From: Deltaproteobacteria bacterium
GTDB lineage: Bacteria; Desulfobacterota; Syntrophobacteria; BM002
Reading direction: 5' to 3'
Length of the DNA: 61,111 nucleotides
NCBI GenBank assembly: GCA_022340745.1
Contig: JAJDNL010000019.1
Location: 1-61,111, forward strand
In this document: positions 1,897-55,552 of the stretch, in pieces
How the letters are laid out: each line of letters begins with the position of its first letter
How positions within the stretch are numbered: the stretch's first letter is position 1
The notes under the pieces: model-generated
The model's database searches: none
Told to the model about the DNA's origin: nothing
The model's input: only the letters and a program-made list of their open reading frames with translations
Made by a program: the position numbers and the translations under genes

Positions 1897-2042
1897 TTGA
1901 AGCTCCCTGCAGCAAGACCTGTCGACGAGACTTGTCGATGAGACCTGTCGATGAGACCTGTCGACGAACTCAGGTCGAGTCGCTCAAGTCGTGTCGCTCA
2001 AGTCAAGTCGCTACGGGGAATGCGCTCGCCGCAGCATTTTCA
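1897..2042. mobile_element. MITE family A copy 1 (IS200/IS605-like ends; central core deleted; 4x13-mer + 3x14-mer tandem repeats)
   Basis: Ends TTGAAGCTCCCTGCAG ... GGGGAATGCGCTCGC..AGCATTTTCA are shared with five other copies. Confidence 0.85.
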
Positions 2043-2073
2043 TGCAACTGACATTTTATCAGGAGAGAAGGGA

Positions 2074-2526
2074 ATGCAGATATGGGTCGATGCTGATGCC
2101 TGCCCCAGAGTGATAAAAAATATTCTCTTTCGTGCAGCCGAGAGATTACAGATATCTTTAACTCTGGTCGCAAATCGGCCTCTACATACCCCTCCGTCAT
2201 GTTATATCAAGGCGATCCAAGTAGATCATGGTCTCGATGTGGCCGACAACCAAATAGTGCAAAAATTACGACAAGGCGACCTCGTCATTACCGCTGATAT
2301 ACCTCTTGCCGCTGAGGTTATAGAGAAAGGTGGCCATGCGCTTGACCCCAGGGGAGAATTCTATACAAAAGGCAATATTGGCGAGCGCCTTGCTGTGCGT
2401 AATTTCATGGATGAGCTGCGCAGTGGTGGCGTGGACACGGGTGGACCATCGTCGTTCAGCCAAAGTGATCGTCAAGCTTTTGCTAATCAATTAGATCGTT
2501 TTTTGGCTAAACACGGCAATACTTAA
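2074..2526 (+). CDS. yaiI: YaiI/YqxD family protein (UPF0178, DUF188)
   Basis: [11 protein letters not shown] start, [20 protein letters not shown]; the ORF-track N-terminal extension lies in a MITE. Confidence 0.92.
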
Positions 2527-12412: not shown

Positions 12413-12636
12413 GAGTAGTGCAGTACCGGAGGAATAGAAATTCCAAATCACAAAGAATGAGGTTTCAGGTTTCAGTGTTCAGTTTTCAGTTTTCAGTTTT
12501 TTGGTTGTTCTTCCCTGACACCTGACATCCGACACCTGAAACCCTGAGATTTCTCCTGCGGAGTCCCCACCCTCTGGGCGGGGCCCCAGTTTGGTGCCTG
12601 GAGTTTGGGATTTTATAGACTCAATACTCCAATATT
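12413..12636. repeat. Three-layer nested inverted short-repeat element
   Basis: Inner (GTTTCAG)n 12460-12496 vs (CTGACAC)n 12515-12545; middle AAATTCCAAATCACAAA vs TTTGG..GAGTTTGGGATTT; outer GAGTAGTG.. vs CAATACTCCAATA. Confidence 0.75.
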
Positions 12637-22156: not shown

Positions 22157-22226
22157 TGACCACCTCCTGAAAACGATGCGATCACGTTACCATGTTTACC
22201 CTAACGTTGCAAACCTGAAGGTATAG

Positions 22227-22595
22227 TCAGGTTTCAGGTGTCGGGTGTCAGGTGTCAGGGAAAAGAAACGTAGAATCCAATAGTCAGTAGCCAGTAGCCC
22301 ACAGTTCGGGTACAGGGTGCAGGGTATAAGGTACAGGGAATTATGTGACTTCTGTTCAGTGCTTTACCCTGTACCTTGCACCTTGTATCTTGTACCGGAA
22401 TTTCCCTGTATTCTGACCTCTAATCTGCGTCTCACCGTTTCTCCGCGTCCCCGCGTCATCTTGTAGTGCTTACTGCCTAGTACAAGTATCTGCCTGCTGC
22501 TAGCCGCCAGCTGCCTTTTGCTTTTCAAATTCGCAATCCGCAATTCGAAATTCGAAATTGTCTCCCCATGCTCTATGCCCCATGCCCCATGCCCT
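22227..22595. repeat. Multi-family nested short-repeat spacer
   Basis: (GGTGTCA)n, (CAGTAGC)n, (GGTACAG)n vs (CCTTGTA)n, (CCGCGTC)n, a 58-bp block shared with 15646-15703, (ATGCCCC)n. Confidence 0.8.
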
Positions 22596-22723: not shown

Positions 22724-24466
22724 ATGCAGAACACTGAGTCCACTCCAGAGACGATCCAGGGAGTCCGCTACCAGTGGCAGCTAAAAACCCCCTATCACGA
22801 CCTGGCCCAGGAGATTGAAACGGCCCTCGGACTACCCCCTTTGGTTGCCTTGATTCTCACCACTCGGCACATCACTTCTACAACTCAGGCTAACGACTAC
22901 CTCGATTGCCGGCTCGAAAACCTCCACCCTCCAGACAATATGCCAGATCTCGATAAAGCGGTTAGTCGCATCGTCAGAGCTTTAGAGCAAAGAGAGCAGA
23001 TAGCTGTCTACGGCGACTATGACGTGGACGGTATTACTGCCACCGCGCTGCTGGTGCACTTCCTTTCCTCGTTAGATGGGGCAGTACGTTGGTACATACC
23101 GCACCGTCTTCAGGAAGGTTACGGTCTCAACAGGAAAGCTCTTCAAACTATGCATGGCGAGGGCGTCGCTCTGGTCATCACTGTGGACTGCGGCATTACA
23201 AATCATGAGGCTATTGAAGTGGCCGGCAAACTCGGACTGGATGTAATTGTCACCGACCATCACCTGCCTCCACATTCCCTTCCGGCAGCACTCGCCCTAA
23301 TAAATCCCAAACGGAGTGAAAAAACAGAAGAACTCAGGGATCTTACCGGCGTCGGTGTTGCCTTCTATCTAGCCGCCGCGCTTCGAGCCCACTTCCGCCG
23401 CGCGGGCCGGTACGCCACCTCTGAGCAGCCCGACCTTAAAAAATATCTCGCCTGGGTCGCCCTCGGCACATTGGCGGACATGGCCCCTCTTACCGGCACG
23501 AACCGGATTCTTGCACGTTTCGGTCTGATAGAACTTACCCGAACTTCCAACTGCGGGCTGCAAGCTCTCAAGGCAATTTGTGGTCTGGAGAAAAGCACAA
23601 TTAATGACTGGGACGTCTTGTTTCGGTTGGGCCCCCGTCTCAACGCTCCTGGGCGACTGGCGAGTGGGGACCTGGCTGTGCGCTTTCTCCTTAGCACTGA
23701 TTCTGCCGAGACCCGGAATCTGGCCCTTGAAATCGAAGAACTCAACCGGCAGCGCCAGCATGAGGAAAAACAGCTCTTGGCCGAGGCTTTGTACCTTGTG
23801 GAGGCGGATAGCTCTCTTGAGCAGAGCAGTTCGTTGGTTCTTGCCTCACCCGGCTGGCACAAGGGAATATTGGGCCTCGTGGCCTCCCGCCTCGTCGAGC
23901 GTTTCAACAAACCGACCATCCTCCTCACCCAAGTGGACCAGCACTGGGAGGGGTCTGGCCGTAGTTTTGGTACCTTCGATCTTTATCAGGCGTTGTATAG
24001 CTGTAGAGATCACCTGGTGCGCTTCGGCGGCCACAAACAGGCAGCAGGACTGGGTCTCAAAAAAGAGCTACTGACAGAATTCCGTACTGCATTCGAAAGC
24101 ATTGTGGAGGAGCAAATGGACCCAGAAGACATCCGCCGAACAATAAAAGTGGATGCTATGGTTCATCTTGATGAGATTACTCCTGAGTTGATGGCATATC
24201 TGGAACGAATGCAACCTTACGGCGTAGACAATCCAGAACCCGTTTTCTGTTGTTGTGGTTTTCAGGTGGAAAATCTGCAGATACTCAAGGGGCGCCACTT
24301 ACAGTTGCGGTTGCGGCAGGGAAAAGCACGCCTCGGCGCCATTGGCTTCAACTTCATTGAGTCCGATCATCCACCTCCGGTTCCGGAGTGGCTGCTTTTC
24401 AGCCCTCGATGGAATTATTGGCAGGGCCAGAACCGCATTCAGTTGCACTTGCATGATTATAAATAG
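22724..24466 (+). CDS. recJ: Single-stranded DNA exonuclease RecJ
   Basis: YGDYDVDG, TVDCG, VTDHH, LGTLAD, PRLNAPGR, FGGHKQAAG; the ORF-track extension lies in repeats. Confidence 0.95.
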   Translation: MQNTESTPETIQGVRYQWQLKTPYHDLAQEIETALGLPPLVALILTTRHITSTTQANDYLDCRLENLHPPDNMPDLDKAVSRIVRALEQREQIAVYGDYDVDGITATALLVHFLSSLDGAVRWYIPHRLQEGYGLNRKALQTMHGEGVALVITVDCGITNHEAIEVAGKLGLDVIVTDHHLPPHSLPAALALINPKRSEKTEELRDLTGVGVAFYLAAALRAHFRRAGRYATSEQPDLKKYLAWVALGTLADMAPLTGTNRILARFGLIELTRTSNCGLQALKAICGLEKSTINDWDVLFRLGPRLNAPGRLASGDLAVRFLLSTDSAETRNLALEIEELNRQRQHEEKQLLAEALYLVEADSSLEQSSSLVLASPGWHKGILGLVASRLVERFNKPTILLTQVDQHWEGSGRSFGTFDLYQALYSCRDHLVRFGGHKQAAGLGLKKELLTEFRTAFESIVEEQMDPEDIRRTIKVDAMVHLDEITPELMAYLERMQPYGVDNPEPVFCCCGFQVENLQILKGRHLQLRLRQGKARLGAIGFNFIESDHPPPVPEWLLFSPRWNYWQGQNRIQLHLHDYK

Positions 24467-24558: not shown

Positions 24559-24815
24559 TGAAAATGCTACAGCTCGCCCTGTTGAATAGGGTTCCTTTCG
24601 GGAAATTCAACAGGGCGAGCGCATTCCCCGTAGCGACTCGACCTGAGCGACTCGACCTGAGCGACACGACTTGAGCGACTCGACCTGAGCTCGTCGACAG
24701 GTCTCGTCGACAGGTCTTGCTGCGGGGTTAGCGAGCGAACTATAATAAAATGGAATCATTTCCTTACATTTCGAAGATTCCCTGCCCGCCGCAGGCGGAC
24801 TGCAGGGAGCTTCAA
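24559..24815. mobile_element. MITE family A copy 2 (reverse orientation; 2x13-mer + 4x14-mer; extra hairpin insert)
   Basis: TGAAAATGCT ... CTGCAGGGAGCTTCAA with the conserved core GGGGTTAGCGAGCGAACTAYAATAAAATGGAAT. Confidence 0.88.
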
Positions 24816-31786: not shown

Positions 31787-31890
31787 TGAGGTTTCAGTGT
31801 TCAGGTTTCAGTTTTTTCCTGACACCTGAAACCCGACACCTGAAACCCCGAGACTTGGTGCCTAGTCCATAGTGCTTAGTGCCTAGTTGG
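31787..31890. repeat. Inverted heptamer array between pheS and pheT
   Basis: (GTTTCAG)n 31789-31811 vs (CTGACAC/CTGAAAC)n 31819-31848, then (TAGTGCY)n. Confidence 0.8.
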
Positions 31891-36035: not shown

Positions 36036-38282
36036 ATGGATTTGACCGACGACCCCTTGGCAGGAGTTGATGCCAGCGAATTAGAGGCCGACATTGACAA
36101 GGCCATAGACGAACTCTTCGTAAAAAAAACCGAGGGGAAGGAACCTTCGCGAGCTGAGGAAGCCCCACCCGAAGAGCCCGACAAAGAACCGGCAGAGAAA
36201 CCAGTGGAAGAATCTGTCCCGGCTCCGCCGGCTGAAGCCGCAGATGATCCTTTAGCTCAATTGAAGGAGAGTCTTCTCACTCTGGATTGGGAAATTACTC
36301 CGGAGTCCATACAGGATTTTGAAAAAGAGCTCCAGGCCGTTAGCGACAAGCACGGTGATGATCGTCACTGCATGGCAGTGATTAAAATGTCCCTGGGCGT
36401 GCTCACATATCTACGGGCTGCAAAGGCTGATGCAGCGCCGATCTCCGTCCAGTTTTTACATGGAGCTACCCGCGGTCTTGATCTCTTCCTGCGGGAGTCA
36501 GAACCCACAGAGGCTGAGCGCAGCGAGGTAATGGACCAATTGCTCGGTCAATTTAGGCGGGTGAAGGCTGAGATCCAGCGGATGAAACCGTCGGCAGAAA
36601 GACCTCCAGCAGTTGAGCCCGAACCAGCCGTCGAGCCTCCGCCAGATGATGAGCCGATTTTGGAAGAAATGGTCGCGGAAGAACCAGCGCTGGAGGAGAT
36701 AATCGAGGAAGAGCCGATTCTGGAGGAGGCTGCCGCAGAGGAACCAATACTGGCGGCTACCCCTGAAGACGAACCAGTTCTAGACGAACTATTTGGGGAA
36801 GAACCGGTATTAGAAGAAGCGCTCGAGGAAGAGCCGATTCTGGAGGAGGCTGCCGCAGAGGAACCAACACTGGCGGCTACCCCTGAAGAAGAACCAGTGC
36901 TGGACGAATTATTCGGAGAGGAACCGGTATTAGAGGAAGCGCTCGAAGAAGAGCCGACTCTGATCGCTCCTGCAGAAGAAGAACCCTTGCTGGAAGAACC
37001 TCCGGAAGAAGAACCGACACTGGAAGCACTCACCGCAGAGGAACCAACACTGGCGGCTACCTCTGAAGAAGAACCAGTGCTGGACGAGCTTTTGGAAGAA
37101 GAACTTGTCGCTGAAGACATACCCGGGGCAGAGCCAACTCCGGAGGCACCTCCCGAGGAGGAACCAGTTTTTGAGGAGCTTTTCGACGAAGAACCGGTTC
37201 TGGAGCCAGCGGCAGAGCCAGCGGAAATGGCTCCGCCACCTGAGATGGTCCCGGCTGATACTCCTGCATCCCAGCAGCCCTTCATCCAAGAAGCCAGAGC
37301 CCTGAGTGGTCAACTTTCCAATGCTTTGCAGGTCCTTGACCAGGAGACCACCACCTTTTTTGCTCGCATTTTGCAAGCAATGGCAGGCAAGCCTGCTCTC
37401 CAGAAATTAGAGAGACATTTTGGCTCCGTGCATAAGACTGTAGGAGCTAAACTGACAGACGCCCAGGAACTGTCCGGCAATCTGAGTGCAGCGCTGAGCA
37501 AACTTGAGCAAAATTTAGACCAGCAGCAAGAGGGAGCCCTTGCCCCGAAAGCCCAGGCTGCAATTGATTCGCAGGTTACAACTATCCGTAATGCTGTTCA
37601 GAGTCTAAGTCAGGCCGCTTCCAACCTGCAGCACAGTCTTGCCGGTAAGGGTGTGGCATCCGAAGGGATAGCATTCAAAGATGCGCAATTGGAAACTGAA
37701 GAGTTCTCCTTGGATTCTGATGAGTTCATGGAGTCTCTAGATTCCGAACCAGTATTGGACCTGGTCGAGGAGATACCTTCCGAGTCCCCTGGTATGACTC
37801 CCGATGCACAGGCTAGCATTTACCTGGCCGACGTGGTCAACAACACCCTGGGTATTCCTGCGGAGGCCGTCGTCAATATCTACAAGGTTTCCAAGGGCAA
37901 AGTGAAGAGTTTGCGCAAGAGAGGTTACCTTAGACTGACCGATTTCAAGGGGGCATTTCGCAGCATCAAGCGGGGAATTACTGGTCCTCTCGCCAACCTC
38001 AAACCGAAAGACTTGAAGAAAATCCAATTCCCCATTATCACTCTTGGTGCGGAAATCCTTGGCAGCGATGACACCGAGGCCGTAGCCCCCGTCAGAGGTA
38101 TTGTTCTGCTCAGCACTGGTGAGCGCCACGGTGCCTTACTGACTGATGAGGTCATGCAAAGGACGCCCTATGACGTCAAAGGCTTCCGCAAAGCTGGGGT
38201 ACCAGGAAAGGTGAGCGGCACGGCCACCATTGAAGGAGATTTTGAGATTAACGTTATTGATCCGAACTACGTGCTCTCGTAA
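36036..38282 (+). CDS. Large acidic protein with EEEP decapeptide repeats and possible C-terminal CheW-like domain
   Basis: LKESLLTLDWEIT helical domain; about 19-20 EEEPxL repeats; C-terminal beta domain LGIPAEAV...ALLTDEV...SGTATI...VIDP. Confidence 0.75.
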   Translation: MDLTDDPLAGVDASELEADIDKAIDELFVKKTEGKEPSRAEEAPPEEPDKEPAEKPVEESVPAPPAEAADDPLAQLKESLLTLDWEITPESIQDFEKELQAVSDKHGDDRHCMAVIKMSLGVLTYLRAAKADAAPISVQFLHGATRGLDLFLRESEPTEAERSEVMDQLLGQFRRVKAEIQRMKPSAERPPAVEPEPAVEPPPDDEPILEEMVAEEPALEEIIEEEPILEEAAAEEPILAATPEDEPVLDELFGEEPVLEEALEEEPILEEAAAEEPTLAATPEEEPVLDELFGEEPVLEEALEEEPTLIAPAEEEPLLEEPPEEEPTLEALTAEEPTLAATSEEEPVLDELLEEELVAEDIPGAEPTPEAPPEEEPVFEELFDEEPVLEPAAEPAEMAPPPEMVPADTPASQQPFIQEARALSGQLSNALQVLDQETTTFFARILQAMAGKPALQKLERHFGSVHKTVGAKLTDAQELSGNLSAALSKLEQNLDQQQEGALAPKAQAAIDSQVTTIRNAVQSLSQAASNLQHSLAGKGVASEGIAFKDAQLETEEFSLDSDEFMESLDSEPVLDLVEEIPSESPGMTPDAQASIYLADVVNNTLGIPAEAVVNIYKVSKGKVKSLRKRGYLRLTDFKGAFRSIKRGITGPLANLKPKDLKKIQFPIITLGAEILGSDDTEAVAPVRGIVLLSTGERHGALLTDEVMQRTPYDVKGFRKAGVPGKVSGTATIEGDFEINVIDPNYVLS
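36646..37210 (+). repeat. Coding tandem repeat, 30-bp period with a 120-bp higher-order duplication
   Basis: 36705-36824 and 36825-36944 are near-identical. Confidence 0.88.
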
Positions 38283-42213: not shown

Positions 42214-42391
42214 TTGAAGCTCCCTGCAGCAAGACCTGTCGACGAGACTTGTCGACGAGCTCAATTCGTGTCGCTCAGGTCGAGTCGCTGCAGGGAATCT
42301 TCGAAATGTAAGGTATTTATACCATTTTATTGTAGTTCGCTCGCTAACCCCGCCGCAAGCTGCGGGGAATGCGCTCGCTGAAGCATTTTCA
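42214..42391. mobile_element. MITE family A copy 3 (2x13-mer + 2x14-mer)
   Basis: TTGAAGCTCCCTGCAG ... GCATTTTCA; its terminal TCA is the miaA stop codon on the minus strand. Confidence 0.9.
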
Positions 42392-50812: not shown

Positions 50813-50963
50813 TTGAAGCTCCCTGCAGCAAGACCTGTCGACGAGCTCAGGTCGGGTCGCTGCAGAGAATCTTCGAAATGTAAGGAAGTGATTCCATTTT
50901 ATTGTAGTTCGCTCGCTAACCCCGCAGCAAGCTGCGGGGAATGCGCTCGCTGAAGCATTTTCA
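50813..50963. mobile_element. MITE family A copy 4 (1x13-mer + 1x14-mer)
   Basis: Full scaffold; right hairpin unmodified (CCCCGCAGCAAGCTGCGGGG). Confidence 0.9.
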
Positions 50964-53904: not shown

Positions 53905-54234
53905 AAGCCCGGATGTTTCATGAAAATGCTGCAGCGAGCGCAGTCCCCTGGGCCCGCTTCTCGAGCGGGACGGGGTTAGCGAGCGAACTACAATAAAATG
54001 GAATACCTTCCTTACATTACGAATCCCGCTTCAGCGGGACTGCAGTTTACTGCAGGGAGCTTCAATTGTCGTCGCGAGACCGTGGAGAAGGATGTACCAC
54101 CGGGCAACCGCAGGGGGTTGGATCTGAGGCGTACTTGAAAAGTACGTCGCAAGGTCAGGCACCCGAGGACGCCCGGAAGGACATTGATATCCTCGGTCGT
54201 AGTCACGCCGTGGCGTGATGAAATATTCGGGCTA
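53905..54234. mobile_element. MITE family B copy 3, interrupted by MITE A copy 5
   Basis: TIRs AAGCCCGGATGTTTCAT / ATGAAATATTCGGGCTA; the B body resumes at 54066. Confidence 0.85.
53921..54065. mobile_element. MITE family A copy 5 (reverse orientation, nested in B)
   Basis: TGAAAATGCT ... CTGCAGGGAGCTTCAA with conserved core. Confidence 0.88.
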
Positions 54235-55409: not shown

Positions 55410-55552
55410 TTGAAGCTCCCTGCAGTCCGCCTGCGGCGGCCAGGGAATCTTCGAAATGTAAGGAAGTGATTCCATTTTATTGTAGTCCGCTCGCTAACCC
55501 CGTCCCGCTCGAGAAGCGGGACCAGGGGAATGCGCTCGCTGGAGCATTTTCA
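55410..55552. mobile_element. MITE family A copy 6 (upstream of proC)
   Basis: Full scaffold; hairpin tips replaced by TCCGCCTGCGGCGG and TCCCGCTCGAGAAGCGGGA. Confidence 0.9.

Follow-up and report, generated by a model that had tools for sequence, protein, structure and literature searches.

The small dispersed repeats SDR1-8 of Nostoc punctiforme and its relatives are said, in the account by Elhai et al. 2008, to be dispersed, non-coding sequences of 21-27 nt. They reportedly lie nested in other repeats, such as heptamer arrays and hairpins, with both filled and empty versions of the host sequence at hand. To our knowledge, the movement of DNA shorter than ~30 nt, of which the Nostoc repeats are the example, has never been explained and no mobilising enzyme is known for it; nor are SDRs known to have been described as nesting at their own centre to give mirror-ordered arrays. 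According to PMC5861425, the HIP1-enriched cyanobacteria yielded no SDR-like repeats outside the Nostocaceae. Repetitive extragenic palindromes (REPs), their paired form (REPINs) and the REP-associated tyrosine (RAYT) Y1 transposases form a second related system, which PMC3116915 and PMC6006769 portray as short imperfect palindromes in extragenic DNA, present in tens of copies or more and thought to move as folded single strands. Here we analysed one entire contig of 61,111 nt (JAJDNL010000019.1, hereafter the window) from an assembly of 3.9 Mb in 301 contigs (GCA_022340745.1; 50% G+C) of an uncultured, sulfate-reducer-like deltaproteobacterium. It holds four repeat arrays at hairpin tips, which we lean towards reading as nested copies of one 27-nt, non-coding, asymmetric hairpin element, the 27-mer or module.

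The arrays comprise 4+3, 2+4, 2+2 and 1+1 units to the left and right of a central dinucleotide (copies 1 to 4; Table 1). These counts, given in the original prediction from the letters of the contig alone, were borne out by the sequence itself, by Tandem Repeats Finder, which recovers the same arrays, and by mismatch pattern searches with shuffled sequences as control. Copy 1 reads, on the forward strand, CCCTGCAGCA, four 13-nt A units, AA, three 14-nt B units and CTACGGGG, with AGACCTGTCGACG as the consensus of its A unit and CTCAGGTCGAGTCG as that of its B unit. In the window, the A unit with up to two mismatches gave 12 matches against 0.87 expected (maximum of 4 in 100 shuffles), and the B unit gave nine against 0.39; a chance origin of the unit matches is excluded. 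The unmodified tip GCAGCA-AGCT-GC exists as had been proposed (hairpin 2 of the copy 3 and copy 4 hosts has it, for instance), and the same module does enter either host hairpin at the identical base, with variant units shared between loci. The centre dinucleotide, AA in copy 1, is AG at 83/92 loci of the genome.

Table 1. Module copies in the window, their parts and their host elements
Feature	Position	Strand	Description
Host element of copy 1	1899..2040	+	Two-hairpin miniature transposon reduced to one hairpin ('hybrid'); left arm of hairpin 1, module, right arm of hairpin 2, right end; boundaries with a 2-nt TT ambiguity
Copy 1, left arm	1915..1966	+	Four 13-nt units: A, A'-like, A-like, A
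Copy 1, centre dinucleotide	1967..1968	+	AA; with the following CT, the retained tip AG^CT
Copy 1, right arm	1969..2012	+	B, B', B' variant (1969-2010), then CT of the original tip
Copy 2, module 2+4	24634..24717	-	In the hairpin-2 tip of a two-hairpin host; A 24692-24717 (2 units), centre 24690-24691, B 24634-24689 (4 units)
Two-hairpin host of copy 3	42214..42389	+	Module in hairpin 1; hairpin 2 (42345-42368) with plain tip
Copy 3, module 2+2	42232..42287	+	Mirror order A A', then B'-like B; A 42232-42257 (2 units), B 42260-42287 (2 units)
Two-hairpin host of copy 4	50813..50963	+	Hairpin 2 (50917-50940) with plain tip
Copy 4, module 1+1	50831..50859	+	One 27-nt element and the split AG/CT; A 50831-50843 (1 unit), B 50846-50859 (1 unit)

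Across the genome, the module occupies 91 loci, in the order A...B without exception, most often in the states 2+2 (29 loci), 1+1 (19), 2+1 (12) and 1+2 (10). The 27-mer consists of ACCTGTCGACGAG followed directly by CTCAGGTCGAGTCG, a 13-nt left half and a 14-nt right half that pair imperfectly via GACCTG/CAGGTC and CGAC/GTCG, with fixed mismatches and the one-nucleotide difference in length; 13 nt against 14 nt was the rule at every parsed locus. The two sides had been thought to vary independently, which they do not: the number of left units (n) equalled that of right units (m) at 52/91 loci against 35.1 expected on permutation (p ~1e-4, r = 0.36), an enrichment inflated by related copies, and at 84/102 loci in relatives. 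The arms also mirror each other in sequence. One variable stem position covaries, the innermost A/B pair being C/G or T/A at 77/91 loci (96/102 in relatives), and rare G/C and A/T innermost pairs occur as well. Written as left arm:right arm, the variants read CT:AG in 6/7 2+2 arrays of hairpin 1 and TC:GA or TT:AA in 7/10 of those of hairpin 2, and three of the four 3+3 arrays are perfect mirrors (CCC:GGG, CTT:AAG and CTC:GAG). A third variable site, GAG vs GTG, lies in an unpaired part of B and is linked to the stem variant, a linkage that stem pairing cannot explain because this site is unpaired. At loci with n = m, 65/88 layers fit three whole-element types, (T,A,T) in 33, (C,G,A) in 23 and (T,A,A) in 9. 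Adjacent units within one arm are mostly unlike (of equal type in 31/73 cases for A and 27/82 for B), which is not expected from duplication of neighbours. The arrays are thus, as originally claimed, more ordered than plain slippage would leave them, with a complementary innermost pair at 77/91 loci, linked variants in 65/88 layers and the one-pair differences between orthologs described below.

Excision of the 27-mer in silico from a 1+1 locus gave back the plain tip ...CA-AG^CT-GC..., and the centre of the 27-mer itself reads ...GACG-AG^CT-CAGG.... As this centre carries AG^CT, a second copy placed there gives A-A-AG-B-B-CT, and repeated insertion at the regenerated AG^CT yields the array formula of the original prediction, n = m and mirror order, with no copying between arms needed. 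In the model that these observations suggest, certain hairpins would take up a copy at their apex, where it would part the G from the C of R-G^C-T; the targets seen are the two end hairpins of a ~150-nt host and a ~19-nt tip motif inside heptamer arrays. The element's own apex, ...GACGAG^CTCAGG..., would be the target for further copies, and with each addition the retained AG^CT would gain an A unit on its left and a B unit on its right, which builds mirror-ordered [A]n-AG-[B]n-CT. On top of this, single 13- or 14-nt units are gained or lost on one side through replication slippage or unequal exchange, and recombination or slippage between the inserts of one host's two hairpins deletes the interior and leaves single-hairpin hosts such as that of copy 1.

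The junctions between units follow a simple rule. The dinucleotide preceding the outermost unit follows the target (GG at 5/92 loci), and that preceding inner units is AG in 73/73 cases. Head-to-tail junctions of the 27-mer numbered zero in the genome and in the retrieved loci, so that copies never lie side by side there. A search for perfect palindromes found no centre whose right arm was the reverse complement of the left, which argues against template switching from arm to arm. Of the templated addition at the hairpin tip that had been proposed, the part that stands is the addition of material on both sides of a retained AG^CT; copying of one arm from the other is unlikely, given the absence of perfectly palindromic centres and units of 13 nt vs 14 nt everywhere.

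Orthologous sites in relatives differ by exactly one element in two cases. At L051, an exact 27-mer lies between ...TTCGGCAAG and CTCAGGG..., and this genome has the uninterrupted motif at that site (C116 near 7102). L028 has 1+1 (C:G) vs 2+2 here (C90), where the additional inner pair belongs to the other variant type. In two further cases, one species has a composite of tip motif and module (~50-63 nt) that others lack; the composite of one case, which lies within a heptamer array, is missing from three other species. The 27-nt step would on our reading be an insertion rather than an excision, with the element probably copied in from elsewhere.

The core of the module was found in at least five unrelated sequence contexts in this genome and its congeners. 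The commonest is the ~19-nt tip motif CC(C)TTCGACA-RG^CT-CAGG(G), which sits in direct heptamer arrays or in 'gtcattctgagc...gcgaagaatctc' repeats and of which plain copies are numerous in the genome (for example C27:3834, C52:26728, C116:7102 and C120:2431). This motif resembles a shorter cousin of the 27-mer. The intergenic DNA is dense in 7-nt tandem repeats (window 12463-12543, 22226-22594 and 31789-31887, and ~50 more arrays), often as inverted pairs that fold back on each other, such as GGTTTCA x5 facing CCTGA(A/C)A x4, with a unit that differs by locus. Another insert, of 31-34 nt (CCCCGCTGAAGCGGGATCTCCGCTTCGCTCCGACA and variants), was seen just left of AGCT in host tips here (C123, C125, C201, C253 and C282) and in relatives (L093, L188 and L191); it ends in ...CGACA-AG^CT and hence offers a further target for the 27-mer. 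At the centre of a ~145-nt foldback, GTGGGAGCGGCTT...AAGCCGCTCCCAC, a congener (L012/L177) has the tip motif with a 1+1 module, and at this site our genome (C53 ~22999-23061) has one arm only.

The other targets are the hairpins of the host, an element of ~150 nt composed of two related hairpins, CCCTGCAG-CAAG-CTGCAGGG (hairpin 1) and CCCCGCAG-CAAG-CTACGGGG (hairpin 2), with 81 two-hairpin copies in the genome. Host tips are plain or carry the module or other mini-hairpins (TCCCGC-N4-GCGGGA, TCCGCC-N3-GGCGGA or the 31-34-nt insert), in all combinations of the two hairpins. In at least 40 hosts, the CAAG(CTG) tip of hairpin 1 is replaced by one of the first two mini-hairpins, with covarying stems; in the window such tips lie at ~24780-24815 (-), ~55410-55450 (+) and ~54040-54065 (-). 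The first belongs to the host of copy 2, whose hairpin 1 (near 24780-24815) thus has a different mini-hairpin tip. At its right end, that host also bears a nested palindromic insert, CCTGTTGAATTTCCCGAAAGGAACCCTATTCAACAGGGCGAGC (~24575-24618, -), which recurs at other hosts with right flanks 'gcgctcgccctgttgaat...'.

The host element is mobile in its own right. Three congeners lack the host of copy 1 at the orthologous site, ...GTTAT(T/G) there adjoining (C/T)ATGC... directly; in a fourth, the site holds a two-hairpin element with the same right junction. One congener (L120) shares the host of copy 3 at its site, there with mini-hairpin tips in both hairpins, the tips having been replaced rather than filled, and four (L121, L123, L124 and L125) are without it; the host of copy 4 is absent at the orthologous site in all six alignable congeneric loci. 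A contig 98.5% identical in its flanks (L220) has a single-hairpin host that is absent here. L219 was given little weight, as its right flank leaves the locus after the element and may be an assembly join. The host has no terminal inverted repeats, and three pairs of empty and filled sites revealed no target duplication beyond a 1-2-nt ambiguity; at these three sites the left flanks end in TTAT(T), ACGG(T) and GTGA(T), and TGAAG is part of the element, not of its target. Mechanical open reading frames overlap the copies in the window, but the hosts are missing from relatives beside conserved genes and are therefore intergenic insertions. Tip state is not tied to the similarity of host backbones. 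Pairs of hosts with 0-2 backbone differences shared the hairpin-1 state in 2/10 cases and the hairpin-2 state in 3/10, and the 100-column host backbone contains little signal, shows no linkage with tip state and gives no tree.

Copy 1 had been assigned to hairpin 1, which proved incorrect: hairpin 1 contributes a left arm before the array, and hairpin 2 a right arm after it. Copy 1 is a single-hairpin derivative that arose by deletion between the inserts of the two hairpins. Among 26 such hosts in the genome, left after exclusion of six full-length variants from 32 matches, 17 hold the module (copy 1 included), nine a shared mini-hairpin of the TCCGCC type and none a plain tip. At C184, a single-hairpin host with 1+5 here corresponds to a full two-hairpin host with 1+1 in hairpin 1 in the congener L188, and at least one single-hairpin host is polymorphic between strains. 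These forms also have longer arrays, with a mean n+m of 5.05 vs 3.3. Inserts common to both end hairpins thus drive the collapse of a miniature transposon to single-hairpin forms, and these forms break short-read assemblies. Logan contigs end inside the array of copy 1, with pieces that stop at 1923 and resume at 1974 and none that bridges it; contig joints with a skip of 146-148 nt lie at 1894/1898 to 2041/2047, in keeping with the boundaries of this host, and internal joints are not assignable to this locus.

Unit number also varies between near-identical populations, the kind of variation that the original prediction proposed to look for, and the changes are of the slippage kind. In metagenome contigs 97-99% identical to the genome, one or two units differ, on one side only: C114 (C114:13920) has 2+3 here vs 3+3 in L221 with identical flanks, and C235 has 3+3 here vs 3+1 in L218. 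L079 and L212 likewise differ by a single 13-nt unit, and all eight loci with an excess of at least two units on one side have identical adjacent units. One-sided gain and loss of units acts on top of the nested arrays.

The 23-nt core of the module is present in 17/17 other genomes of the genus, in 1-32 copies each vs 72 in this one (the high-copy genomes have 72, 32, 25 and 14 core matches), in 1/4 genomes from other genera of the family, in 0/19 from other families of the class and, with one copy each, in 2/400 genomes sampled across the phylum. Since the 17 include single-contig genomes and independent metagenome assemblies carry the core too, the suspicion of an assembly artefact is refuted. 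Species-representative genomes hold at least 78 core loci; among the matches listed, almost all are in metagenome-assembled genomes (MAGs) assigned to Syntrophobacteria, Syntrophobacterales, Desulfobacteraceae or Deltaproteobacteria. Viral contigs gave no match to the core. The Y1 transposase family PF01797 occurs in all 17 congeners, with 1-12 matches and in forms of ~150 aa and ~330 aa. At the gathering threshold, tRNA was the only Rfam match in the whole window. A literature sequence search on both strands found the core and the tip motif in no paper, with the supplementary repeat alignments of PMC2700814, which could list a relative of the tip motif, outside its scope; a word search for nested self-inserting hairpin elements returned plant transposon and eukaryotic work only.

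Several observations weigh against nested insertion of a 27-nt element by an activity of its own. Out of 28 orthologous comparisons attempted (15 + 10 + 3), two gave a clean one-pair difference. In the set of 15, two loci were informative at the module level; at five, the relative carries a host and this genome either an empty site (four) or a remnant (L004); three had larger indels (L012, L048 and L070) and five were unalignable (L155, L011, L022, L037 and L054). In a further set, 10/20 loci were without orthologous flanks, and all five relatives have other sequence in place of the region with the second C87 locus. The 27-nt differences at the two key sites were compared without an outgroup and could be excisions, no difference between the 97-99% identical populations is a 27-nt pair, and at ~90% divergence some substitutions in a 56-nt array are expected anyway. 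Hosts copy themselves together with their inserts, and many mirror arrays may therefore stem from few founders, so that the counts overstate the number of independent events. As for folding, the DNA of the copy 3 array stands out (z = -4.2 on the forward and -4.8 on the reverse strand), whereas the long arrays are unremarkable in folding energy vs shuffles (z = -0.8 and -1.9), and for this reason we do not take hairpin stability as evidence. The co-occurrence with HUH or RAYT genes that the original prediction had in mind also fails here: PF01797 had no match in this assembly, by profile or by tblastn with congener proteins, the assembly being 95.8% complete and of a kind from which multi-copy genes can be missing. 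Yet it is this assembly that holds more host elements and modules than any other of the genus, and in congeners the number of PF01797 genes bears no relation to the number of modules.

Much of this would be expected if the arrays were an ordinary minisatellite in a passenger, in which the module made one or a few entries into a tip and was then carried along by its host, copy number changed by slippage or unequal exchange, and mirror order and n = m persist since balanced, well-paired hairpins survive or copy better. All differences between the 97-99% identical populations, and that between L079 and L212, are one-sided as this account predicts, runs of identical units occur at all eight loci with marked excess, the hosts that carry arrays are themselves mobile, and the four compensatory stem variants (C/G, T/A, G/C and A/T) look as they would under selection for pairing. 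It does not readily explain why adjacent units are usually unlike, why inner and outer pairs differ at three linked sites of which one is unpaired, or how an exact 27-nt presence/absence came about at an otherwise plain tip motif. The spread of the core over at least five unrelated contexts, for each of which it gives no source of the first 1+1, and the lack of linkage between tip state and host backbone also speak against it, as they do against the scenario, raised at the outset, of one ancestral insertion followed by slippage and recombination between the two hairpins. We therefore regard a passenger minisatellite as unlikely. In its simpler form, a variable-number tandem repeat changed by slippage alone, it was rejected on the unlike neighbours (31/73 and 27/82 alike), the mirror order and the enrichment of n = m, with slippage retained as one component.

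A second account does without any dedicated mobility and has short-patch ectopic gene conversion or replication template switching carry the 27-mer and entire arrays from one look-alike tip to another, guided by microhomology (...CGAC-R-AG to the left, CT-C/G-AGG to the right) that is found in the element, in the tip motif and, more weakly, in the host hairpins. Every target tip does resemble the element's own centre, at one host that a congener shares the tips were replaced and not filled, backbones and tip states are shuffled against each other, and the PF01797 search found no transposase in the assembly; template switching at hairpins is, moreover, treated as an established mutational process in PMC8794818 and PMC7202029. 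Against this, homology with the tips of host hairpins amounts to ~4-6 nt per side only, the arms keep their difference of 13 vs 14 nt throughout (0 perfect palindromes), and the core is base-exact across 17 species and sporadic distant genomes, which fits selection for its own propagation. Spread by conversion or switching alone seems improbable to us as well. Quasipalindrome correction was rejected, with no right arm an exact reverse complement and units of 13 vs 14 nt, and readings as a CRISPR-like array or a restriction-site artefact were considered and dropped. A cyanobacterial origin, which the heptamer repeats had brought to mind, is contradicted by the MAGs in which the core lies, and the link to GIY-YIG or reverse-transcriptase genes raised in the original prediction was set aside. 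That the module is a functional element, such as a protein-binding array or a structured RNA that would tune a nearby gene through its number of units, as a phase-variable terminator or operator might, is very hard to credit, for although the arrays are intergenic, form hairpins, adjoin gene ends and vary in unit number between populations, congeners differ in having or lacking entire hosts next to the same conserved genes, no Rfam family other than tRNA matches in the window, the inspected loci have no neighbour gene or orientation in common and copies range from 1 to 72 per genome within the genus.

Returning to nested insertion, we read the 27-mer as selfish DNA, having seen no evidence for a cellular function. 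As the agent, our first guess would be a trans-acting, hairpin-specific enzyme of the Y1-HUH kind that cuts and pastes single strands, ahead of microhomology-guided template switching as the main alternative. More tentatively, there may be a dedicated hairpin-apex activity that recognises R-G^C-T on a folded single strand and pastes a 27-nt single-hairpin DNA into it. If so, the 27-mer would be among the smallest self-targeting mobile elements, its arrays would be ordered records of insertion with the outermost layers the oldest, and the same activity would explain the other mini-hairpins in host tips and perhaps the cyanobacterial SDRs. Whatever the agent, few DNA units that seem to be mobile are as small as the 27-mer, which offers a clean test case, with a fixed 27-nt increment, a regenerated 4-nt target, filled and empty orthologs, 1-72 copies per species and variation at the population level. 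Mirror-ordered 'tandem repeats' at hairpin tips, more generally, need not reflect slippage.

Two further features of the window were observed in passing. Downstream of copy 1, an open reading frame at 1951-2526 (+) has its start ATG within the array; conservation with relatives begins only from ~2041 and includes an ATG at 2075, so gene callers may place the start too far upstream, within the repeat. A long tandem repeat at 36651-37104, with periods of 30, 60, 90 and 120 nt and rich in GAAGAAGAACC, is probably a coding Glu/Pro-rich repeat.

How does the module compare with systems described elsewhere? The short tandemly repeated repetitive (STRR) sequences of cyanobacteria are heptamer repeats. 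In Geobacter metallireducens, paired inverted sites of tandem hepta- or octanucleotide repeats are described in PMC2700814. With both, the arrays share tandem short units on the two arms of an intergenic foldback, and the window is full of heptamer pairs of this type; those units vary by locus and flank a non-repeated spacer, whereas the module has a single conserved sequence wherever it occurs, across many loci and many species. Quasipalindrome template-switch mutation (PMC8794818 and PMC7202029) acts at hairpins too and can make compensatory changes and lengthen stems in one step. It renders one arm the exact complement of the other, however, and the arms of the module keep their 13/14-nt asymmetry. 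Plant miniature inverted-repeat transposable elements (MITEs), as Jiang and Wessler 2001 are summarised within PMC5172404, prefer to insert into their own copies and form multimers from independent insertions, in which they resemble the 27-mer. MITEs differ in being >100 bp long with terminal inverted repeats and target duplications, and their insertions are not limited to the exact centre, so that no mirror-ordered tandem arrays result.

Among bacterial elements, the gene-less IS200/IS605 derivatives known as palindrome-associated transposable elements (PATEs) resemble the host alone, with a hairpin near each end, no terminal inverted repeats, no target duplication and perhaps insertion after a short motif ending in T, and with Y1 transposases in all 17 congeners. 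The module differs from them as a passenger in host hairpins and, having a single hairpin, cannot have the two-ended IS200/IS605 architecture. Like REPs and REPINs, the 27-mer is a short imperfect palindrome in extragenic DNA with tens of copies. It differs in forming neither inverted doublets nor clusters like bacterial interspersed mosaic elements (BIMEs), being nested and always in the order A...B, in lacking the GTAG-type head that is a feature of REPs, with no Y1 gene found in the assembly, and in inserting into hairpin tips and into itself. The closest known analogue of the 27-mer would appear to be the SDRs of Nostoc. Its 27-nt increment and 91 loci match them in size and dispersal, and the empty and filled host hairpins, the empty and filled tip motif at an ortholog and the composite in a heptamer array have their counterparts there. 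The likeness is one of description, and it spans phyla, from the Nostocaceae to MAGs of Syntrophobacteria, Desulfobacteraceae and Deltaproteobacteria. A class of tiny mobile DNA was thus already known; what is new here is self-nesting and the mirror-ordered arrays to which it leads.

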